Shown piece after piece: positions 805-15,591 of a stretch of 64,000 bases of DNA. Made by a program: the position numbers and the translations under genes. The stretch spans positions 60,663 through 124,662 of the forward strand of contig JAOIOW010000003.1 in NCBI GenBank assembly GCA_028140795.1, written 5' to 3'. This DNA comes from Fidelibacterota bacterium (lineage in GTDB: Bacteria; Fidelibacterota; Marinisomatia; Marinisomatales; Marinisomataceae). The notes beneath the pieces were generated by a model, which saw nothing but the letters and a program-made list of their open reading frames with translations, was not told the DNA's origin and searched no databases. Positions within the stretch are counted from its first letter, which is position 1, and each line of letters begins with the position of its first letter.

Positions 805-1518
805 TTATTTTTCTATAATTTCGCTAATTTTTTTAAAACTTCCATTTAATTCCGAAATCATTTTTTCGGTATATGGATTAAAATTTTGAATATCTTCAAA
901 TAATTCCCAAGTATCGTTACATGTTTGACTTACAAGCTTATGCAATGCTTTATAGCCTTCTGTATCAATTCTAGTTTGGTTTGTTCCAAAATCATCAATA
1001 ACTCTTCCAACAAAATGGGTTAATCCTTGTGATCTTGCAGCCATCATGTCATGCTCTTCAGCAGAAATTTCTTCAATGGTAATATTTTGACTTTCAAAAT
1101 AGTTTTTCCAAAAATCATATCTTTCAAAATTATTTCTTACCGATTCCATAGTCATGACTGAACCACTATCTTTTAGGGAATCAGGACCAAATAATGGATG
1201 TGTTGCTATTATGTCTGTTTGAGTAGGCAAATTATCTTTCATCACTTTTTTTGGAAATACTTTTACGGAACAAACATCTATTAAAGTCTTTCCGCTTTCA
1301 ATTTTATCTGAAATATTGATTATCAGCTCTTCAAAATCTCTAATAGGAACAGCAATGAAAATAGTTTCATTTTTAAGAGCGTCTTCAAATGAAACTTCAT
1401 TGATTTCTGTATTATTAATTGGATTTTTATCAAATACGTCTACTTCAAAACCTTTTGAGAGTAACGCATGTAGCATTGCTCCAAATCTACCAAATCCTAT
1501 GATGCTAACTTTGTTCAT
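805..1518 (-). CDS. tyrA: Prephenate (or arogenate) dehydrogenase, short form
   Basis: N-terminal Rossmann motif 'IIGFGRFG' and 'ATHPLFGP' (the HPMFGP-type motif of TyrA). ATGA overlap with the upstream pheA gene. Confidence 0.85.
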   Translation of the reverse strand: MNKVSIIGFGRFGAMLHALLSKGFEVDVFDKNPINNTEINEVSFEDALKNETIFIAVPIRDFEELIINISDKIESGKTLIDVCSVKVFPKKVMKDNLPTQTDIIATHPLFGPDSLKDSGSVMTMESVRNNFERYDFWKNYFESQNITIEEISAEEHDMMAARSQGLTHFVGRVIDDFGTNQTRIDTEGYKALHKLVSQTCNDTWELFEDIQNFNPYTEKMISELNGSFKKISEIIEK

Positions 1519-2081
1519 GAGTCCAACCTTTTAACAGCCAAGAATAACGTTAAATTTCTCTTCAAGTCATGTATATCATTCTCAAGAATGTTAAGTCCAT
1601 ATTTCTTTGCGGAAAATTTACTTGCAATAACTGCAACTTTTTTCGGTAATCTTCCCTCTGCTAAATCTTGAGCAGCCTTAGCAGTATCATCCTCCTCAAC
1701 AAGCTTTTTTGACCAGAATTTTTCAGCCAAATAATCTTTACATTGCTTTAATGCTTGTTCATGTGAATGAATTTCTTCAATATCTCCGACTGAAACTCCA
1801 TCTATTGCTAATAAATTTTGGCTGATTTCTACATAAAACATGTCAATGATTTGACACTGATTTTTTGCTAAAGCTTCTACGCTTTCAATCACCACTCCTC
1901 CTTGCGCATTTTCCATAGCAAATATTCCTGTATCAATCGAATTATTTGATAAACTATTAAGCACGTTCATTGAGCTAACAAGATATTTTAATTCAAAATC
2001 TTCAATTCCAAATTTTTTACAATATGATTTTGCAGCTTCTTCGCTAAAACTACCTTCAATTCCTTGAATACCTACTTTCAT
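1515..2081 (-). CDS. pheA: Prephenate dehydratase, PDT catalytic domain only (no ACT domain)
   Basis: 'GIQGIEGSFSEEAA', 'ENAQGGVV', 'SHEQALKQC' and 'NLTLFLAV' match PDT-domain motifs. At 188 aa there is no room for a C-terminal ACT domain. Confidence 0.85.
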   Translation of the reverse strand: MKVGIQGIEGSFSEEAAKSYCKKFGIEDFELKYLVSSMNVLNSLSNNSIDTGIFAMENAQGGVVIESVEALAKNQCQIIDMFYVEISQNLLAIDGVSVGDIEEIHSHEQALKQCKDYLAEKFWSKKLVEEDDTAKAAQDLAEGRLPKKVAVIASKFSAKKYGLNILENDIHDLKRNLTLFLAVKRLDS

Positions 2082-2509
2082 TTTTTCATCTCCAAAATAT
2101 GCTTTATACCTTTAATATAACTTTGTTTTCCTTCACCAAAAAACTGTCCAATGCAAACATTTTTTATGACGGAAGTTTTTCTAAAATTTTCTCGTTTATG
2201 AATATTCGACAAATGTACTTCAACCGTAGGAATTTGAGTCCCAATTATAGCATCTCTTAAAGCATATGAATAATGAGTCAGTGCACCAGCATTTAAAATA
2301 CAATAGTCTACTTTTCCTCTTTTTGAATGCAAAAAGTCAATCATTTCACCTTCCGAATTTGATTGAAAGAATTCAAGTTCAAAATTCTGGCACAATTCAT
2401 GATTTTGAATCCATGCATTGATTTGATTCAGACTCTCACTACCATAAATCTCAGGCTCTCTTTCGCCAAGCAAATTCAGGTTTGGTCCATTCACGATAAT
2501 TAATTTCAT
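2078..2509 (-). CDS. aroQ: 3-dehydroquinate dehydratase, type II
   Basis: 'IIVNGPNLNLLGEREPEIYG' and 'HLSNIHKRE' are typical of type II DHQase. Confidence 0.93.
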   Translation of the reverse strand: MKLIIVNGPNLNLLGEREPEIYGSESLNQINAWIQNHELCQNFELEFFQSNSEGEMIDFLHSKRGKVDYCILNAGALTHYSYALRDAIIGTQIPTVEVHLSNIHKRENFRKTSVIKNVCIGQFFGEGKQSYIKGIKHILEMKK

Positions 2510-3573
2510 AACACGCTCAAACTTTCTTTAATTTGATCAAATGTGATATCTTTGCTGATTCTTGATTTACCAATTTCATCAAGTAAAATAAATCTAATTT
2601 TTTTCTCTCTAAATTTTTTGTCATTCTTAACAAAATTTATAAAAGTCTCTCTGTTATCAATATCAAGTTTTGGTAATTCAAATTTAGACAATAATTGAGT
2701 GGATATATCATATTCATCATTAGATAAATTTCCAAATTTATTGGAAAGATATAATGCGCATTTCATACCATAAAAAATTGCTTCTCCATGTAATAAATTT
2801 TTGTAATTAGTAAATGATTCAATTGCATGCCCAACAGTATGACCAAAATTCAGAATCATCCTTAATTCATTCTCATTTTCATCTTCACTAACAATATCGC
2901 TTTTTATTTCACAACATTGGATAATTATTTTTTGTAAAACATCTATATCTTTATTTTTAATTTTGATTGAATTAGCAACTAAATAATCAAAAAATTCTCT
3001 ATCATAAATGAAGCCGTATTTTACAACCTCTGCAAGAGCAGCTTGCAACTCTCTAGCTGGTAACGTTGATAAAAAATTGGTATCAATTTCTACAGCTATA
3101 GGCTGATATATTCTTCCAACCAAATTTTTACCAACCTTTAAATTAATTCCTGTCTTTCCTCCTATAGCAGAATCAACCATTGCAAGTAACGTGGTTGGAT
3201 ATTGAATGTATTTAATTCCCCTCATAAAAATTGATGATGCAAAGCCCGCAACATCTCCAACTACCCCTCCACCTACTGCAAACACTAATGATGACCTATC
3301 AAAATGTTTTTTTGCCATCTCATTTACAATTAAAGAAATAGATTCAAATGATTTTGCTTTTTCACCTTGATCAATCAAAAAAATATTTACATTAGGTAAA
3401 TTAGAAAGCTCGTTTATTTCATCTTTATATAGACTTAGAATCTCTTTTTGAGTAATTAACATACATTGTGATTTTGTTGACGATGCAAACTTTACAACTG
3501 AATTTTTGAAACCCTCAATCAAACTGATGTTATAGCTATTGTTTCCTAAATCAACTTTAATCTTATTGGACAT
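2506..3573 (-). CDS. aroB: 3-dehydroquinate synthase
   Basis: 'GGGVVGDVAGFASS', 'GGKTGINL' and 'NFGHTVGHAIE' motifs. 355 aa. Confidence 0.93.
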   Translation of the reverse strand: MSNKIKVDLGNNSYNISLIEGFKNSVVKFASSTKSQCMLITQKEILSLYKDEINELSNLPNVNIFLIDQGEKAKSFESISLIVNEMAKKHFDRSSLVFAVGGGVVGDVAGFASSIFMRGIKYIQYPTTLLAMVDSAIGGKTGINLKVGKNLVGRIYQPIAVEIDTNFLSTLPARELQAALAEVVKYGFIYDREFFDYLVANSIKIKNKDIDVLQKIIIQCCEIKSDIVSEDENENELRMILNFGHTVGHAIESFTNYKNLLHGEAIFYGMKCALYLSNKFGNLSNDEYDISTQLLSKFELPKLDIDNRETFINFVKNDKKFREKKIRFILLDEIGKSRISKDITFDQIKESLSVL

Positions 3574-4084
3574 TAATTATCTCCATTATTTGATTGCAGT
3601 TGTCCTGAATAGTCTGATGATCCGTAATAACCTCAATTTTGCATAATGCTTCATACTTTTGTTCTCTTTTTAATATAATTTCTTCAAATACCTCATCTTT
3701 ATTTTGGACATTTAATAATGGCCTAGAATTATCATCTTTAAGCCTATCTAGTAAGATATTTTTAGATGTTTTTAAATAAATGCAATGTTTTGAGCTTAAC
3801 AATTCGTAACTATCTTTGTGTGATACTGCTCCTCCACCAACAGCTATAACAGTATTTTCTTTTAAAATATGTTTTTGTAATTCAGCAAATTCTAACTTTC
3901 TAAAACTTTCTTCTCCCTTTAAAAATAGCTCATTTATGGACATATCAAATGACTTAATTAGTTCATCATCAATATCAATAAAATTCCATCCTAAGCTCAA
4001 AGAAAGAGCTTTTGCGGTGGAAGATTTTCCAGAACCCATCATTCCGATTAAGTATAGCTGATTAATATTTTCCACTGCTTTCAA
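3563..4084 (-). CDS. aroK: Shikimate kinase
   Basis: P-loop 'GMMGSGKSS', 'VIAVGGGAV', and a size of 173 aa. Confidence 0.9.
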   Translation of the reverse strand: MKAVENINQLYLIGMMGSGKSSTAKALSLSLGWNFIDIDDELIKSFDMSINELFLKGEESFRKLEFAELQKHILKENTVIAVGGGAVSHKDSYELLSSKHCIYLKTSKNILLDRLKDDNSRPLLNVQNKDEVFEEIILKREQKYEALCKIEVITDHQTIQDNCNQIMEIINVQ

Positions 4085-5222
4085 TGTGTTTTTTTAATTG
4101 CTTAATACTATCTCCACCGAACTTTTCAAGTAATGCATCCGCAAGGACAATAGCCAACATACTTTCCCCAATGATTGATGCCGCAGGAACTGCACAAGAA
4201 TCTGTTCTTTCTTTATGCGCAAGCTTTGGCTCCATAGTATTCAAATCTATCGATCTTAAGGGCTTTATGAGCGTTGAGATAGGTTTCATGCTTACCTTTA
4301 CATGAATTGGTTGAGCATTGCTCATTCCACCTTCAATACCTCCAGCATTATTTCTTGAACGAGTGATTTTGTCATTTTCAAATAATATTTCATCATGAAG
4401 TTCGCTTCCAAATGCCGCAGATGAAGCAAAACCGGCTCCAACCTCAACGCCTTTAAAAGCATTCACAGACATCATTGCTTGGGAAATTCTGGCTTGAAGC
4501 TTTCCATCAGCGTTGATATAGCTTCCTAAACCATAAGGCATTCCTTTGGCAATTACCTCAAAAGAACCTCCAACTGAATCACCATTACTTTTCGCTTGAT
4601 CAATAACGTTAATCATTTTTTCTTCTGCATCTTTATTTAAACATCTTACTGAGGATTTGTCAGCTAAATCGTTTAATTGAGACATAGTTAAAGAATGGTC
4701 AACTTCTTTATTATCAACTACATCATGAATTTGATATACTCTGCTCCCAATGGTTATTCCTACTTCATTTAATAGTTTTCTGCAAATAGCACCAATAGCA
4801 ACTCTCATAGCAGTTTCTCTTGCTGAAGATCGTTCTAAAACATTTCTAATATCATCAAAATCATATTTCATCATACCTGCTAAATCTGCATGTCCAGGTC
4901 GAGGCATTGTTACCTTTTTATGTTCTTTTTTAGGTTTACCTACTGCCATTCTATCTTCCCAGTTCACCCAATCTAAATTTTTAATGATTAGGGAAATAGG
5001 AGATCCGAGTGTGTGTTCATGTCGCACTCCTGAAAAAATTTCTGCAAAATCTTTTTCAATTTGCATTCTTTTTCCTCTGCCATGACCTTGCATTCTTCTT
5101 AAAAGATCAACCGCAATATATTCTTCAGTAAGCTGAAGACCAGCAGGTATTCCTTCAATGATACCTATTAACCCTTTTCCATGCGATTCACCAGCGGTCA
5201 TATATGATATTTTTTTTAACAT
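4062..5222 (-). CDS. aroC: Chorismate synthase
   Basis: 'TAGESHGKGL', 'RPGHADL' and 'ERSSARETA' motifs. Confidence 0.95.
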   Translation of the reverse strand: MLKKISYMTAGESHGKGLIGIIEGIPAGLQLTEEYIAVDLLRRMQGHGRGKRMQIEKDFAEIFSGVRHEHTLGSPISLIIKNLDWVNWEDRMAVGKPKKEHKKVTMPRPGHADLAGMMKYDFDDIRNVLERSSARETAMRVAIGAICRKLLNEVGITIGSRVYQIHDVVDNKEVDHSLTMSQLNDLADKSSVRCLNKDAEEKMINVIDQAKSNGDSVGGSFEVIAKGMPYGLGSYINADGKLQARISQAMMSVNAFKGVEVGAGFASSAAFGSELHDEILFENDKITRSRNNAGGIEGGMSNAQPIHVKVSMKPISTLIKPLRSIDLNTMEPKLAHKERTDSCAVPAASIIGESMLAIVLADALLEKFGGDSIKQLKKHIESSGKY

Positions 5223-6034
5223 TTTATGTTCTCCAATTGTTTTCTCACGGACTCAATTTGTGAATCCAAATTATAGTTAGTTTCTCTCCAAATTTCAATA
5301 GACTTCAAAGCTTGGAAAATAAACATATCAAGACCATTAATCTTTTTGGAGCATTTATCAAATTTTTTTAAAAATAAAGTTTCTTTCGAAGTATAAATTA
5401 GATCAATTAATACTGTATGATCTTCAACAGGAATATCAAAAAAATTGTCACTGTCTTGCTTATACATTCCTATTGGAGTTGTATTAATTGCAATATCACA
5501 ACTCGTATGATTTGAATTAAATAGATCTATGTTGTTGAAACCGAGGGTATGAGCAAAATTTTGGAGATTGTGAGCATTATCGATAGATCTGTTTTTTATA
5601 ATAATCCTACCAATTCCCTTATCAATTAAGCATTTAACTACAGTTTTTGCAGATGATCCTGCCCCAAGGACAACACAGCTAATTCCATCAATATCTATAC
5701 CATTTTCATTTAAAAGCATATCAAATCCATACTTATCAGTATTAAACCCACAAATCATATTATTTGATTTTGATATACAGTTCACATTATCTAAGATTTT
5801 TGCCTCATCATCAATAGTATCTAAAAACTTTACTACGCTACTTTTGAATGGTATGGTAACATTAATACCATTAAATAAACCAAAATCATTATTGAAAAAA
5901 TCATCAAGCTGTTCATTTTCTAAATGAATTTTTTCAAAAGAACAGTTCAAAATATTCAATTTCTCATAAAGAATTTTATGAAGCTGAGGGCTTAAACTTT
6001 TATCAATTGGGTTTCCAATTACTGCAAATTTCAT
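5216..6034 (-). CDS. aroE: Shikimate 5-dehydrogenase
   Basis: 'VIGNPIDKSLSPQLHK', 'GFNTD' and NADP-binding 'VLGAGSSAK'. Confidence 0.88.
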   Translation of the reverse strand: MKFAVIGNPIDKSLSPQLHKILYEKLNILNCSFEKIHLENEQLDDFFNNDFGLFNGINVTIPFKSSVVKFLDTIDDEAKILDNVNCISKSNNMICGFNTDKYGFDMLLNENGIDIDGISCVVLGAGSSAKTVVKCLIDKGIGRIIIKNRSIDNAHNLQNFAHTLGFNNIDLFNSNHTSCDIAINTTPIGMYKQDSDNFFDIPVEDHTVLIDLIYTSKETLFLKKFDKCSKKINGLDMFIFQALKSIEIWRETNYNLDSQIESVRKQLENIKC

Positions 6035-7281
6035 TTGGTTAACTCGCTAAGATAATTAAAGAAATTTGGCAATGAAATATCAACGCATTGTATATTATCA
6101 AGCTCATATTTTTCAAAAGAAGTAAGGCTTAAAATTGTGAATGCCATAGCAATCCTATGATCATCAAAGGTAGTTATTTTAGGCATTCTTTTTACCTTAC
6201 CTCCTTCAATAAATAAATCATTATTTTTTTCATATGCCTTGATTCCAAATGCTTTAAGATTATGTATAATTGCGCCTAACCTATCACATTCTTTATATTT
6301 TAACTCTTCAACATTTTTAAAAACTGTAGTGCCGTTTGCAAAAGCTGCTACAACTGCTAATATTGGTACTTCATCTATGATTGATGGTATAATTTCAGGC
6401 TCAACTTCTATTGCTTTTGGATTAGATGCGCTAACAGTTAAATCTCCTACTTTTTCTCCATTATGAATAGATTCATTTGATTTTGTTATTAAACAATTCA
6501 TTTTATTTAAAACTTCAACAAATCCAATTCTTGACTCATTAAGCAATACATTAGTCAGTTTTAAATTTGAATTATTGTTAATAACTGCCAAAGCAACAAA
6601 AAAGGCTGCTGAAGATGGATCAGAGGGCACAGAAATATCAATCGACTTTAACTTGGATTTGAGTGGATGAACTATAATTTTACTTCCTTCACTTTCAATT
6701 GATGCTCCCATATTCTTTAACATAATTTCTGAATGATTTCTTGTCGGAATAATCTCATTAACACTTGATACATTATTTCCACCTAAAGCTGAAAAAAGTA
6801 TACTTGATTTCACCTGCGCACTTGCAACTTTCATATCATAATCTATACCGCTAATACCTTCAGAAGCATCTATTGATAAGGGCAATAATCCATCATTAGA
6901 GAAAATTTTACATCCCATTGCTGTTAAAGGCGTAATTATTCGCTTCATTGGTCTTTTTGATAAAGATTCATCTCCAATTAATGAAAATACTAATTTTTGG
7001 GAAGCTAATAGTCCTGCAACCAGTCTAGTAGTAGTTCCTGAATTACCACAATCAAGATCATTTGATGGAGAATGAAGTTCTTTTCCATGAATTACTATTT
7101 CATTTTCTCTTTCTTGTATTGAAGCTCCACAATCTTTCAAAATATTAATTGTTGACTGCAGATCAGCTCCATCATTTAAATTTCTAACATAACTAACTCC
7201 CTCAGCTATGGCTGAAAGCATAATTGCTCTATGAGAAATAGATTTATCTCCTGGAAGTTGCAATGTTCCTTGAACTAGCAT
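6031..7281 (-). CDS. aroA: 3-phosphoshikimate 1-carboxyvinyltransferase (EPSP synthase)
   Basis: 'LPGDKSISHRA', 'GNSGTTTRL' and 'DHRIAMAF' motifs. Confidence 0.95.
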   Translation of the reverse strand: MLVQGTLQLPGDKSISHRAIMLSAIAEGVSYVRNLNDGADLQSTINILKDCGASIQERENEIVIHGKELHSPSNDLDCGNSGTTTRLVAGLLASQKLVFSLIGDESLSKRPMKRIITPLTAMGCKIFSNDGLLPLSIDASEGISGIDYDMKVASAQVKSSILFSALGGNNVSSVNEIIPTRNHSEIMLKNMGASIESEGSKIIVHPLKSKLKSIDISVPSDPSSAAFFVALAVINNNSNLKLTNVLLNESRIGFVEVLNKMNCLITKSNESIHNGEKVGDLTVSASNPKAIEVEPEIIPSIIDEVPILAVVAAFANGTTVFKNVEELKYKECDRLGAIIHNLKAFGIKAYEKNNDLFIEGGKVKRMPKITTFDDHRIAMAFTILSLTSFEKYELDNIQCVDISLPNFFNYLSELTK

Positions 7282-8622
7282 TTAACCTTGCAGCTCCTCC
7301 GCAATATTGAAAGAGAGTTCTAGCGCTTGATTAGCATTCAATCTTGGATCACAATGCGTATGATATCTTGAATTTAAATCCTCATCGCTCAGTTTATAAA
7401 TACCACCTGTACACTCAGTAACATTTTGTCCGGTCATTTCTAGGTGTATTCCACCCAAATGACATCCTTTATCCTTAAGAATCTTTATTGCCTCTGAAGT
7501 TTCGTTTAATAAAGAACTAAAATCTCTAGTTTTTAGTCCTGAGGAAGATTTTATTGTATTACCATGCATTGGGTCTGATACCCATAAAACTTTTTTTCCA
7601 TTTTTTGTTATTTCGTCAATTAATCCTGGAAGATATTTACGGACTTTGTTTTTGCCATATCTAAAGATCAAAGAAATTTTTCCAGGCTCATTATCTGGAT
7701 TAATTTTATCAATTATTTTAATGAGCTCTTTTGGATCTAAACTTGGTCCACACTTAATACCAATAGGATTATTAATTCCAGAACAATATTCAACATGAGC
7801 ACTATCTACGAATCTAGTCCTATCACCAATCCAAACCATGTGCGATGAAGTAGCAAAAGTTTTGCCAGAAATTGAATCTGTTCTTGTAAGTGCAGATTCA
7901 AATGGTAAATGCAATGCTTCATGACTTGTATAAAAATCTACTGAATTTAGATAGTCTACAGAGGAAATATTTACACCAATAGCCTCAATGAAATCAAGAT
8001 ATTCATTTATTTGGTTTGCTATTTTTTCATATTTTTTTCCCTCGGGTGTAGCTTTTACAAAACCCATATTCCAGGAATTTACTTTTCTTAAATTTGCAAA
8101 TCCGCCTTGTGCAAAAGATCTAATAAGATTAAGTGTAGATGCTGATTGTGAATAAGCTCTCAAAAGTCTTGAAGGGTTAGGTTCTCTTTTTTGTTCAGAA
8201 AATTCAATGCTATTTATTGAATCTCCAAAATAACTTGGTAATGTTTTATCATTAACTGTTTCAAAATCAGATGATCTAGGTTTAGCAAATTGACCAGCAA
8301 TTCTTCCTACTTTAATTACTGGTACCTTCATTTTTGCGGTAAAAATGGCACTCATTTGCAAAATCACTCTAAATGTATCTCTTATGCTATTAGCATTAAA
8401 TTCCTTAAAACTTTCAGCACAATCACCACCTTGAATTAAAAAAGCTTTACCTTCAACAGCTGAAGCAAGTTTTTCTTTAAGAATATTACATTCACCGGCA
8501 AAAACTAATGGTGGAAATTTTTCAATCTTCTTTAACGCTTTTTTTAAAGCATCTTTATCCTTGTATTCAGGAATATGTTTAACGGTGAAATTTTCCCAAG
8601 AATTTTTAGTCCACTTACTCAT
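7282..8622 (-). CDS. DAHP synthase, class II (plant/actinobacterial type)
   Basis: 446 aa. 'QGGDCAESF' and 'RIAGQFAKPRSS' are class II DAHPS signatures. Confidence 0.92.
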   Translation of the reverse strand: MSKWTKNSWENFTVKHIPEYKDKDALKKALKKIEKFPPLVFAGECNILKEKLASAVEGKAFLIQGGDCAESFKEFNANSIRDTFRVILQMSAIFTAKMKVPVIKVGRIAGQFAKPRSSDFETVNDKTLPSYFGDSINSIEFSEQKREPNPSRLLRAYSQSASTLNLIRSFAQGGFANLRKVNSWNMGFVKATPEGKKYEKIANQINEYLDFIEAIGVNISSVDYLNSVDFYTSHEALHLPFESALTRTDSISGKTFATSSHMVWIGDRTRFVDSAHVEYCSGINNPIGIKCGPSLDPKELIKIIDKINPDNEPGKISLIFRYGKNKVRKYLPGLIDEITKNGKKVLWVSDPMHGNTIKSSSGLKTRDFSSLLNETSEAIKILKDKGCHLGGIHLEMTGQNVTECTGGIYKLSDEDLNSRYHTHCDPRLNANQALELSFNIAEELQG

Positions 8623-8882
8623 AATTCATTCCCTTCAATTTTCTTAGAAGCAGAAATTACACTTTGGTATATTTCTTTTAAATATTTTGCTTCTTTTTGA
8701 GAAAATCTTGCATCAATTCTAGCATAAATGGAATTTTCTCGCTTCGAATCTTCAATTGGTATATTATTCTTAGATTTGATTTCACCAATCTTTATAACAG
8801 GATCTAACCTATCTACTAAAAGGTCAAAAATCATATTATCAATGTTATCAATATTTTTTCTTTCATCATTTATTTCAATCAT
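8619..8882 (-). CDS. Chorismate mutase (AroQ class, monofunctional)
   Basis: Helical CM_2-like sequence 'IDNIDNMIFDLLVDRLDPVIKIGEIK...SKRENSIYARI'. I place the start at ATG 8882, preceded by GGAGG at 8891-8887. The track's longer start at 8909 lies inside the upstream hairpin and U-tract. Confidence 0.8.
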   Translation of the reverse strand: MIEINDERKNIDNIDNMIFDLLVDRLDPVIKIGEIKSKNNIPIEDSKRENSIYARIDARFSQKEAKYLKEIYQSVISASKKIEGNEL

Positions 8883-8891
8883 AATTCCTCC

Positions 8892-8924
8892 AAAAAAAAA
8901 CCCTAACATTTTTTGCTAGGGTTT
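8892..8924 (-). terminator. Intrinsic terminator hairpin plus U-tract (terminator arm of the Phe/Tyr attenuator)
   Basis: Minus-strand RNA reads AAACCCUAGC-AAAAAAU-GUUAGGGUUU followed by more U. The A9 run at 8892-8900 on the plus strand gives nine consecutive U, three of them in the stem. The U-tract abuts the GGAGG ribosome-binding site of chorismate mutase. Confidence 0.7.
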
Positions 8925-8950
8925 CTATAGTTTGTGATATAATTATTCTA

Positions 8951-9010
8951 TCAGGCGCCTATAGTCCCCCTGCATCTAAAATAGAAATAATAGTTGTTAA
9001 AATTTTTCAT
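8951..9010 (-). CDS. Candidate 19-aa Phe/Tyr-rich leader peptide MKNFNNYYFYFRCRGTIGA
   Basis: ATG at 9010, TGA at 8953-8951. Three Phe and three Tyr codons fall within codons 4-11. Codons 14-17 (AGGGGGACUAUAG, 8971-8959) can pair with CUAUAGAAACCCU (8930-8918), which overlaps the 5' arm of the terminator. Confidence 0.6.
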   Translation of the reverse strand: MKNFNNYYFYFRCRGTIGA

Positions 9011-9051
9011 CAGAGCATATTAGTGATAAAAATCTAATTGAGAAACAAAAA

Positions 9052-15432: not shown

Positions 15433-15439
15433 TTTATAT

Positions 15440-15466
15440 AAAAAAAAACCCCGATAAACGGGGTTT
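15440..15466 (-). terminator. Intrinsic terminator hairpin plus U-tract (terminator arm of the trp attenuator)
   Basis: Minus-strand RNA reads AAACCCCG-UUUAU-CGGGGUUU followed by more U, giving nine consecutive U overall. The tract ends 7 nt before the trpE ATG at 15432. Confidence 0.75.
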
Positions 15467-15492
15467 CAAAATCTTGTTAACATGAACTTGGC

Positions 15493-15552
15493 TTACAAGA
15501 CAGATCCCCCGACTTGAAAATACCACTTCCATGTTTTTGAGTTATTTTTCAC
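15493..15552 (-). CDS. Candidate 19-aa trp leader peptide (M)KNNSKTWKWYFQVGGSVL
   Basis: GTG at 15552 is the only possible start in this frame, because an in-frame TAA lies 4 codons upstream. Trp codons are at 15531-15529 and 15525-15523. TAA is at 15495-15493. Codons 14-16 contain CGGGG (15511-15507), which can pair with CCCCG in the 5' arm of the terminator. GUCUUG/CAAGAU can extend that pairing. Confidence 0.5.
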   Translation of the reverse strand: MKNNSKTWKWYFQVGGSVL

Positions 15553-15591
15553 GAGAAAATATTAAAACATAAAATAAAATTTTGCAAATAC

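Follow-up and report, generated by a model that had tools for sequence, protein, structure and literature searches.

The 169-nt spacer in front of a ten-gene CM/DAHP synthase/shikimate/pheA/tyrA operon in this 64-kb stretch of Marinimicrobia DNA (the whole of the stretch analysed, referred to below as the window) most likely encodes a ribosome-mediated transcription attenuator, through which expression of the operon would depend on how much charged tRNA-Tyr and tRNA-Phe is available. The first-pass annotation had read the spacer as a Phe/Tyr attenuator of the pheA/pheST type, and that reading is supported by conservation, by compensatory changes, by the fold of the nascent RNA and by the occurrence of the same architecture in distant Marinimicrobia; it has withstood all of the computational checks suggested in that annotation. 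The attenuator type is textbook, and the Marinimicrobia element is a further example of it. SAR406/Marinimicrobia are abundant, uncultured and almost uncharted in their gene regulation. The element bears on an entire aromatic pathway within a streamlined genome, and few of the attenuators described so far have leader peptides rich in Tyr.

The leader and its operon

Between the trpA stop codon (9054-9052, minus strand) and the ATG of the chorismate mutase (CM) gene (8882-8880) lies a gap of 169 nt (8883-9051), which holds a small ORF preceded by promoter-like hexamers. The features of this region and the operon behind it are as follows.

9010-8951, minus strand: leader ORF of 19 codons plus stop, encoding MKNFNNYYFYFRCRGTIGA
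8978-8992, minus strand: putative regulatory codon run Tyr7-Tyr8-Phe9-Tyr10-Phe11, with Phe4 standing apart at 9001-8999
9040-9045, minus strand: weak -35-like hexamer TTTCTC, 17 nt upstream of the -10-like hexamer, read from sequence
9017-9022, minus strand: -10-like hexamer TAATAT, ending 6 nt before the leader ATG
805-8891, minus strand: putatively controlled operon, with ribosome-binding site GGAGG at 8891-8887, CM at 8882-8619 and the last gene ending at 805; genes overlap or abut

The leader reads ATG AAA AAT TTT AAC AAC TAT TAT TTC TAT TTT AGA TGC AGG GGG ACT ATA GGC GCC TGA, with Phe/Tyr codons at positions 4, 7, 8, 9, 10 and 11, i.e., six within eight consecutive codons. When the spacer was subjected to dinucleotide-preserving shuffles, an ATG ORF with at least six aromatic codons in eight arose in 11 of 2000 cases. 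Both the 169-nt gap and the ORF with six Phe/Tyr codons among codons 4-11 had been proposed in the first-pass annotation, and re-reading of the sequence returned exactly the same coordinates.

No Shine-Dalgarno sequence precedes the leader ATG, and translation of the leader, which we infer, therefore depends on a presumed leaderless start; trpE likewise has none, so that its absence is not unusual in this organism. An automated promoter search ranked a neighbouring register, TTCTCA (spacer 16), top for the -35-like hexamer, and other clades carry TTGCYA at the equivalent position, which is degenerate only in the clade with trpA upstream. In 16 of the 18 leaders compared across the phylum, the start codon follows 5-8 nt after the end of a TAnnnT hexamer, a spacing that suggests leaderless or near-leaderless leader mRNAs. 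To judge from a reference title in PMC4046766, the ilvBNC leader of Corynebacterium glutamicum is a precedent for a leader peptide without a ribosome-binding site.

The ten genes downstream run in the order CM, class II DAHP synthase, aroA, aroE, aroC, aroK, aroB, aroQ, prephenate dehydratase and prephenate dehydrogenase. All ten have NCBIfam matches, those of CM, aroE, aroK, prephenate dehydratase and prephenate dehydrogenase falling below the curated cut-offs. At 188 aa, the prephenate dehydratase covers the first ~185 of the 283-284 positions of full-length models and appears to be devoid of the usual C-terminal regulatory (ACT) domain, and gene-level control may therefore carry more weight than usual.

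Two mutually exclusive helices

The distal part of the leader and the spacer behind it can form two helices, and a third, weaker pairing is also possible.

8892-8924, minus strand: intrinsic terminator, stem AAACCCUAGC/GUUAGGGUUU with arms 8924-8915 and 8907-8898, and nine U at 8900-8892
8959-8974, minus strand: antiterminator 5' arm UGCAGGGGGACUAUAG, within leader codons 13-17, the stop codon lying 6-21 nt downstream
8914-8930, minus strand: antiterminator 3' arm CUAUAGAAACCCUAGCA, overlapping the entire 5' arm of the terminator
8945-8987, minus strand: possible third helix, formed by codons 8/9-11 (8987-8980) and the region of the stop codon (8952-8945)

The terminator consists of a stem of 10-11 bp and nine U, directly after which come GGAGG and then the ATG of the first gene. 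It is predicted independently by the consensus fold, and a strict scan of both strands of the 64 kb returned only two perfect terminator hairpins, this one and another just before trpE. In the alternative pairing, AGGGGGACUAUAG (8971-8959) is complementary to CUAUAGAAACCCU (8930-8918), and RNAfold extends the helix by three pairs, UGC (8974-8972) with GCA (8916-8914); the two helices are mutually exclusive. A hairpin whose U-tract runs into GGAGG and the first-gene ATG, and a pairing of codons 14-17 with 8930-8918 that sequesters the terminator 5' arm, had both been described before, and both hold, the second with the three additional pairs.

In the nascent RNA of the window the alternative pairing is the minimum-energy fold (-18.7 versus -13.7 kcal/mol for the terminator alone), and it is thus competitive with the terminator, as the attenuator reading had supposed. 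In all the lineages that were folded, the nascent RNA has the antiterminator as its minimum-energy structure (-13 to -19 kcal/mol, versus -12 to -16.5 kcal/mol for the terminator alone), and when a ribosome is masked at the stop codon only the terminator remains in the fold. It is nascent-RNA folding that provides the relevant comparison, whereas in the window clade equilibrium folding of the complete leader is not enough to favour the antiterminator: for the full-length RNA of both the window and the L002 clade the terminator is preferred even with a stalled ribosome, so that antitermination there must be kinetic. In the L005 clade a small AACCCC/GGGGUU hairpin with its U-run could persist alongside the antiterminator.

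The possible third helix has 93.8% of its alignment cells paired and two compensatory pairs. It is AU-rich and weak, contributing +3.6 to -2.8 kcal/mol alone, and lies outside both the minimum-energy fold of the L005 clade and the consensus fold. A stable, conserved anti-antiterminator (1:2) hairpin was found neither in the clade folds nor in the consensus fold, and an untranslated transcript would therefore read through by default.

Conservation and covariation

In the comparison with relatives that the first-pass annotation had called for, close relatives keep the small ORF and its Phe/Tyr run with synonymous variation and show compensatory changes in both stems. Twenty distinct sequences, drawn from three Marinimicrobia clades, contain the leader ORF together with the terminator and the alternative pairing, and among them the leader reading frame is maintained through synonymous changes (TAT/TAC, TTT/TTC) and a single indel of 3 nt. 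All clades have a run of 4-5 Tyr/Phe codons (YYFYF, YYYF, FYYYF), with varying residues on either side. In the alignment of the terminator, 98.5% of cells are paired and three pairs have compensatory changes. For the antiterminator the figure is 84%, with three compensatory pairs, and it drops to 27-50% when the partner is slid. In the sequence L094 one G of the G-run has become A and its partner in the C-run has become U, and in the terminator this position persists as a G-U pair. Much of the covariation distinguishes the three clades from one another and hence represents few independent events. The genome search was made with DAHP synthase, Pelagibacteraceae and other Alphaproteobacteria (55-58% identity) being left out; for the weak CM matches L099-L117, seven upstream regions were inspected and contained no obvious leader.

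The same alignments bear on the idea that the small ORF acts in translation, or as a micropeptide or upstream ORF, while the hairpin affects mRNA stability and not transcription. Reinitiation by leader genes near structural genes has been proposed to raise translation (PMC4833913), and the U-run of the hairpin does pass directly into the ribosome-binding site. However, the peptide is unconserved beyond its aromatic run and a Gly/Arg-rich tail, which is dictated by the RNA arm, and the stop codon and the CM start are 69 nt apart, a distance too large for coupling. Moreover, the hairpin and U-run make up a canonical intrinsic terminator in competition with a covarying alternative helix, and we regard a role of this kind as very improbable.

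The gene upstream of the element changes from clade to clade, being trpA, a penicillin amidase-like gene or one of several unrelated genes, which indicates that the element belongs to the downstream CM/DAHP synthase operon and not to trpA. Its architecture also extends to more distant Marinimicrobia with a pheA-tyrA-DAHPS operon, in which the leaders are just as rich in Tyr/Phe but cannot be aligned (e.g., MATKYYYQTYFNDGLRVSP, MNIEKFYNFYGYFTHAGEM, MLNTFYFYYFAKTRGNT and MFNYYYWNYRKSGG) and each is followed by a terminator. Eleven distant leaders were considered, seven before aro operons and four before fused trp-aro operons, and in ten of the 11 the nascent fold pairs a G-rich segment upstream of the stop codon with the 5' arm of the terminator; for the eleventh, L024, the check was by eye. 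In shuffle tests of the individual distant aromatic leaders, the observed count was reached in 1/2000 to 33/2000. We conclude that the attenuator is very probably conserved across the phylum and previously uncatalogued. In the L025 gap no aromatic leader was seen. The L126 leader was set aside: it has no stop codon and the trpB of this locus is split, probably reflecting a poor assembly or a decaying locus.

The hairpin could also be thought of as a plain terminator or insulator of the trp operon, with the aro operon having its own promoter and the Tyr/Phe ORF arising as an AT-rich by-product. It does stand downstream of trpA, and TTT and TAT are common triplets at 28% G+C, yet the ORF, the hairpin and the alternative pairing are also present where there is no trpA upstream, even where the neighbour is on the opposite strand. 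Between the hairpin and the ribosome-binding site of the first aro gene there are always 5-25 nt, lineages that cannot be aligned have aromatic ORFs as well, and the antiterminator covaries. Furthermore, the U-run abuts GGAGG and leaves no room for a transcription start downstream of 8892. This reading is contradicted by these findings and, of the alternatives that we weighed, is the least probable.

A candidate Trp attenuator in series

The second perfect hairpin of the window accompanies a leader ORF in front of trpE, for which the following features can be listed.

15493-15552, minus strand: Trp leader ORF with GTG start, encoding VKNNSKTWKWYFQVGGSVL, TGG codons at 15531-15529 and 15525-15523
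15445-15467, minus strand: predicted Trp attenuator terminator, GAAACCCCG/CGGGGUUUU plus U-run, 13 nt before the trpE ATG (15432), fold z-score -3.81
15559-15587, minus strand: trp promoter-like TTGCAA (15587-15582), 17-nt spacer and TAATAT (15564-15559), 6 nt to the GTG start

Across four sequences the two TGG codons do not vary, whereas the codon between them is AAG, AAA, AAT or ATA. Besides its terminator, the element has a hairpin that takes in the Trp codons, and Tyr and Phe codons come after them. From this arrangement the Tyr/Phe element would be the second of two attenuators in series, the Trp leader putatively gating trpEGDCFBA; a scan for further attenuators in the 64-kb window gave only these two. 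The series arrangement with the Trp leader had been overlooked in the first reading.

In distant lineages the leaders before trpE are of the NNYYSWYWFF type, with Trp, Tyr and Phe codons, and at the two loci that cover the whole operon they are followed by trpEGDCFBA-pheA-tyrA-DAHPS-aroA. The codon content of the leader therefore follows the content of the operon: fused operons have Trp, Tyr and Phe codons, and the leader of the trp-only operon in the window is TWKWYF. This match amounts to a natural experiment on the re-tuning of attenuators once operons have fused or split.

A tentative and rather doubtful extension of these observations is that they belong to a phylum-wide, modular family of leaderless aromatic attenuators, in which the codon set would be re-tuned on each operon rearrangement (Trp, Tyr and Phe for the fused trp-phe-tyr-aro transcript, Tyr and Phe for aro/phe/tyr only, Trp for trp alone). 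In the lineage of the window, two such elements in series might then form an OR gate, the common pathway being opened either by Tyr/Phe starvation at its own promoter or by Trp starvation, via read-through transcripts whose internal, SD-less leader would be poorly translated and default to the antiterminator.

Proposed mechanism

We propose the following account of how the Tyr/Phe element might operate. To judge from promoter geometry, the leader AUG would be the transcription start or lie no more than about 2 nt from it, and polymerases reading through from trpA may supply further transcripts in this lineage. The 19-codon leader would then be translated by a ribosome. When Tyr- and Phe-tRNA are plentiful, the ribosome would reach the UGA codon and cover the G-rich 5' arm (8974-8959), leaving the C-run 8924-8915 to pair with 8907-8898, so that the terminator would form and the polymerase would halt in the U-run at ~8892. 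A ribosome stalled in the Tyr/Phe run (8992-8978), on the other hand, would leave the 5' arm exposed to pair with 8930-8914 once this segment has been transcribed; the terminator 5' arm would thereby be sequestered and the polymerase would enter the operon. Both the placement of the ribosome and a response to Tyr and/or Phe are inferred.

Relation to known regulatory systems

A scan of the whole 64-kb window against Rfam at gathering thresholds, T-box and other cis-regulatory families included, returned no match; as a positive control, the same library detects a SAM riboswitch in a related locus. In permissive scans of the two leaders, the covariance models remain far below their gathering scores, with Phe_leader (RF01859) giving 19.2 bits (E = 1; gathering score 55) for the Tyr/Phe leader and Trp_leader (RF00513) giving 14.2 bits (gathering score 41) for the element before trpE. 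Being absent from Rfam, such elements are overlooked in current genome annotation of the phylum.

These searches also address the proposal that a ligand-, tRNA- or protein-binding switch (riboswitch, T-box, or TRAP/PyrR type) controls the terminator, the ORF being incidental. Terminator/antiterminator pairs do serve such switches as expression platforms, and the spacer contains several UAG triplets. Against this, the window contains no match to any Rfam family at its gathering score, and the sub-threshold matches are terminator-driven and to leader families. Conservation throughout the phylum concerns the ORF, the aromatic codons in it and the position of its stop codon, and not an aptamer-like core, while a short and variable stretch separates the arms. 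T-box, TRAP and riboswitch identities were rejected on these grounds, and we hold control by such a switch to be extremely improbable.

The first-pass annotation did not know of a described case of a combined Phe+Tyr leader before DAHP synthase and the entire shikimate pathway, which overstates its novelty, given that in C. glutamicum the Phe-Tyr-Phe leader peptide aroR precedes aroF, which encodes DAHP synthase (Mentz et al. 2013, PMC4046766; Neshat et al. 2014, summarised in PMC11802643). There, too, a mixed Phe/Tyr leader lies upstream of a DAHP synthase operon and stalled ribosomes raise read-through, a functional likeness that is drawn by description alone and across phyla. The Marinimicrobia run is longer, with 4-6 aromatic codons, and dominated by Tyr, and the operon takes in the whole common pathway together with CM, pheA and tyrA (ten genes). 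The C. glutamicum leader responded to limitation for Phe and not for Tyr, and dual sensing should therefore not be assumed in Marinimicrobia.

Flavobacteriaceae and Marinimicrobia belong to the same broad FCB group. Leader-peptide-type structured 5' elements with no Rfam hit are described before pheA and hisG of Flavobacteriaceae (PMC9723704). Operon content differs in these cases, and the likeness is one of the description given there and not of sequences or peptides.

E. coli pheL-pheA and pheM-pheST share with the Tyr/Phe element an aromatic codon run, a terminator and an antiterminator dependent on ribosome position, but they use Phe codons only, serve single-function operons and have the classical three-hairpin design (1:2 / 2:3 / 3:4) with an SD-led leader ORF. 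In Bacillus subtilis, trp is nested in an aromatic supraoperon, aroFBH-trpEDCFBA-hisC-tyrA-aroE, which is TRAP-controlled. As in the window, trp is thereby transcriptionally linked with common-pathway and Tyr genes and an internal regulatory site is present, although control there is exerted by an RNA-binding protein instead of leader peptides and the gene order is different. The element before trpE resembles E. coli trpL in having two Trp codons, a terminator and a hairpin within which these codons fall, and differs from it in starting with GTG 6 nt after a -10-like hexamer and in carrying Tyr/Phe codons after those for Trp.

A Tyr/Phe leader ahead of the aromatic operon

The spacer between trpA and the chorismate mutase (CM) gene contains the leader ORF, the hairpin with its U-run and the complementary segments that the first-pass annotation had described there.

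Features of the spacer and its flanking operons
15432-9052, minus: trpE-G-D-C-F-B-A
9051-8883, minus: trpA-CM spacer, 169 nt
9010-8951, minus: leader ORF encoding MKNFNNYYFYFRCRGTIGA, Phe/Tyr at codons 4 and 7-11
8971-8959 with 8930-8918, minus: complementary segments
8924-8898, minus: terminator hairpin, AAACCCUAGC/GUUAGGGUUU
8900-8892, minus: U-run of nine U after the hairpin, abutting GGAGG
8891-8887, minus: GGAGG ribosome-binding site, CM ATG at 8882
8882-8619, minus: CM, first gene after the spacer (NCBIfam)
After CM, minus: class II DAHP synthase, then aroA, aroE, aroC, aroK, aroB, aroQ (NCBIfam)
1515-2081, minus: prephenate dehydratase, 188 aa (NCBIfam)
End at 805, minus: prephenate dehydrogenase, tenth gene (NCBIfam)

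These features exceed chance expectation. Dinucleotide-preserving shuffling of the spacer produced an ATG ORF with at least six aromatic codons in eight in 11 of 2000 trials, and a strict scan of both strands found two perfect terminator hairpins in the 64 kb, one here and the other directly before trpE. The ten genes 3' of the spacer abut or overlap, and all have NCBIfam matches. That of prephenate dehydratase is limited to the first ~185 of the 283-284 positions of full-length models, so the enzyme apparently lacks the C-terminal ACT regulatory domain that is usual in this family, and allosteric feedback by Phe may therefore be absent. A 120-aa hydrophobic ORF on the same strand (432-794, minus), 11 nt after tyrA, may share its transcript.

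Conservation of the leader

In a genome search, the window's DAHP synthase shares 99% identity with the one encoded by the Marinimicrobia (SAR406) single-cell genome AG-895-O20. That search with DAHP synthase and one of metagenomes with a CM alignment together yielded a homologous leader in 25 loci, representing 20 distinct sequences from three clades.

Leader peptides by clade (L numbers are loci of relatives)
Window, L001, L081, L082: MKNFN[NY]YYFYFRC[RK]GTIGA
L002-L004, L083-L093: MKNF[FL][ND]YYYF[RK]SRGTVEA
L005, L006, L094-L098: MK[SI]N[NQ]NFYYYFN[GA][RG]GYVGT

The small ORF and its Phe/Tyr run are thus conserved across the 20 sequences, with a constant aromatic run between variable flanking residues, synonymous TAT/TAC and TTT/TTC substitutions, and a single indel, of 3 nt, in the ORF alignment; the L085 leader (MKSNNNFYYYFRSRGTVGA) is intermediate between the L002 and L005 types. 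Because the gene 5' of the leader is trpA in the window clade, penicillin amidase-like in another and unrelated elsewhere, the leader moves with the CM-DAHP synthase operon, and we rejected the idea that it is the tail of the trp operon.

Competing helices and proposed mechanism

Two mutually exclusive helices covary in the alignment of the 20 sequences.

Helices in the alignment
Terminator, columns 88-97/107-116: 98.5% of cells paired, 3 pairs changed on both sides, slid partner 25-69%
Alternative helix, columns 41-52/82-94: 84.2% of cells paired, 3 pairs changed on both sides, slid partner 27-50%

Most telling is L094, in which a C-to-U change in the C-run matches a G-to-A change in the G-run while the terminator position stays paired, as G-U. 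Both the terminator and, in its lower part, the alternative helix are recovered independently by a consensus fold. On nascent RNA, in which the terminator 3' arm is not yet made, the fold of lowest energy in all lineages tested is the alternative helix (-13 to -19 kcal/mol), compared with -12 to -16.5 kcal/mol for the terminator alone. The alternative pairing of the first-pass annotation competes well on nascent RNA (-18.7 versus -13.7 kcal/mol in the window). For full-length RNA at equilibrium in the window and L002 clades, the terminator is favoured even when a ribosome is stalled, so that the choice between helices must be kinetic, as it is in classical attenuators. Masking a ribosome at the stop codon leaves only the terminator in the predicted fold.

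A candidate third helix (8987-8980 with 8952-8945, minus) would tie the final Tyr/Phe codons to the region of the stop codon. Across the 20 sequences 93.8% of its cells are paired and two of its pairs are compensatory, but it is energetically marginal and is missing from the minimum-energy folds of L005, L094 and L095, the L005-type sequences folded. If no third helix is stable, read-through would be the default for transcripts that are not translated. Throughout the L005 clade (L005, L006, L094-L098), AACCCC within the terminator loop is able to pair with GGGGUU, so a small hairpin with the U-run survives in the predicted antiterminated state and could persist beside the antiterminator.

The conserved ORF, the covarying exclusive helices and the nascent-RNA energetics support the attenuator proposed in the first-pass annotation, and ribosome-mediated Tyr/Phe attenuation with two outcomes is the most likely mechanism. 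With adequate supply, a ribosome at the UGA would cover 8974-8959, the terminator would form and transcription would stop at ~8892. With short supply, a ribosome stalled in 8992-8978 would leave the 8974-8959 arm free to pair with 8930-8914, blocking the terminator and allowing transcription of the ten genes.

Start of the leader

The ATG of the Tyr/Phe leader is not preceded by a Shine-Dalgarno sequence. Of 18 leaders from across the phylum (the window's two, with -10-like elements at 9017-9022 and 15559-15564, and 16 in relatives), 16 have a -10-like TAnnnT that ends 5-8 nt 5' of the start codon, in most cases together with a TTGnnn hexamer another 16-18 nt upstream; the exceptions, L017 and L020, have 20-nt spacing and an AAGGA-like motif. 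This arrangement suggests that translation of most of these leaders begins on leaderless mRNAs. The -35 of the Tyr/Phe leader is a degenerate TTTCTC in the window clade versus TTGCYA elsewhere, consistent with some dependence on trp operon transcripts that read through. Shine-Dalgarno use is mixed in the window's genome: trpE has none (UUUUUUUUUAUAUAAAAUG, 15433-15445, minus) and CM has a perfect GGAGG (8887-8891, minus). For C. glutamicum ilvBNC, the title of a reference cited in PMC4046766 records a leader peptide made without a ribosome-binding site.

Leader codons and operon content

A second leader lies before trpE.

Features of the trp leader
15552-15493, minus: leader ORF with GTG start, VKNNSKTWKWYFQVGGSVL, G-run present
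15467-15445, minus: terminator
Within 15445-15587, minus: promoter-like TTGCAA, 17-nt spacer, TAATAT, 6 nt to GTG

Its fold has a z-score of -3.81 and a predicted hairpin containing the Trp codons, and the leader is conserved in three related loci (L118, L128, L129); across the four sequences neither TGG codon changes, whereas the codon that separates them is AAG, AAA, AAT or ATA. With a Trp leader before trpE and the Tyr/Phe leader separating trpA and CM, the window thus has two predicted attenuators in series.

In distant Marinimicrobia, whose DAHP synthase is ~57-61% identical, the gene order differs (pheA-tyrA-DAHPS) and the leader regions are not alignable to the window at the nucleotide level. 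Where a gap precedes this operon, it contains a short ORF with aromatic codons and, after it, a terminator (MATKYYYQTYFNDGLRVSP, MATNYYYKFFMNNGLRIRP, MNIEKFYNFYGYFTHAGEM, MNYIITKNYYSSYFFFTRERVL, MFNYYYWNYRKSGG, MLNTFYFYYFAKTRGNT, MIKLTAEQFTIFYWYYGSGGLE, MKIFFYYFKYAIEGLKNCP); for each of seven regions tested, 1 to 33 per 2000 shuffles matched the observed aromatic count. Loci found through homologues of the window's TrpE (L119-L124, L126, L127) have CM as a stand-alone gene, and a single leader upstream of trpE in them carries Trp, Tyr and Phe codons (MNTNNYYSWYWFFNHKGVS, MNYKNIENYYNWYWFFSLKGVT, MKYINTNNYYSWYWFFNQEGVS). In L124 and L126, where the fused operon is seen whole, the leader is followed by a tight trpE-G-D-C-F-B-A-pheA-tyrA-DAHPS-aroA. 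Among 11 distant leaders folded as nascent RNA, seven before pheA-tyrA-DAHPS and four before trpE in fused-operon lineages, a G-rich segment 5' of the stop codon pairs with the terminator 5' arm in 10; the pairing in the eleventh, L024, was judged by eye alone. Across the phylum, leader codon content follows operon content, as if codons were re-tuned.

L126 has lost its leader stop codon (TAG to CAG, 1039-1158), so that reading continues through the antiterminator, and its trpB (5597-6805) is broken into two ORFs; the locus is probably misassembled or decaying.

Comparison with known systems

The mechanism is textbook attenuation with described precedent, and the window's element is real and adds to a known type. 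The closest described case is C. glutamicum aroR, a Phe-Tyr-Phe leader before the DAHP synthase gene aroF, for which a response to Phe limitation and none to Tyr is reported (PMC4046766, PMC11802643). Flavobacteriaceae are reported to have leader-peptide-type 5' elements upstream of pheA and hisG (PMC9723704), and a full-text literature search for Marinimicrobia and attenuator gave no match. Distinctive here are a Tyr-dominated leader, its predicted control of the whole common pathway together with both the Phe and the Tyr branch, its probably leaderless start, its position in series with a Trp attenuator, and the apparent phylum-wide re-tuning of leader codons with operon content.

No Rfam family reached its threshold in scans of the whole window or in permissive leader scans (Phe_leader 19.2 versus 55 bits, Leu_leader 22.8 versus 50, Trp_leader 14.2 versus 41). 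The same library does pick up a SAM riboswitch at a related locus, which serves as a positive control. A SAM-I riboswitch (RF00162, 80.4 bits, 1496-1611) on the distant Marinimicrobia contig L127 precedes a gene cluster for aspartate kinase/homoserine dehydrogenase, aspartate-semialdehyde dehydrogenase, a GHMP-family kinase, threonine synthase and Cys/Met metabolism.
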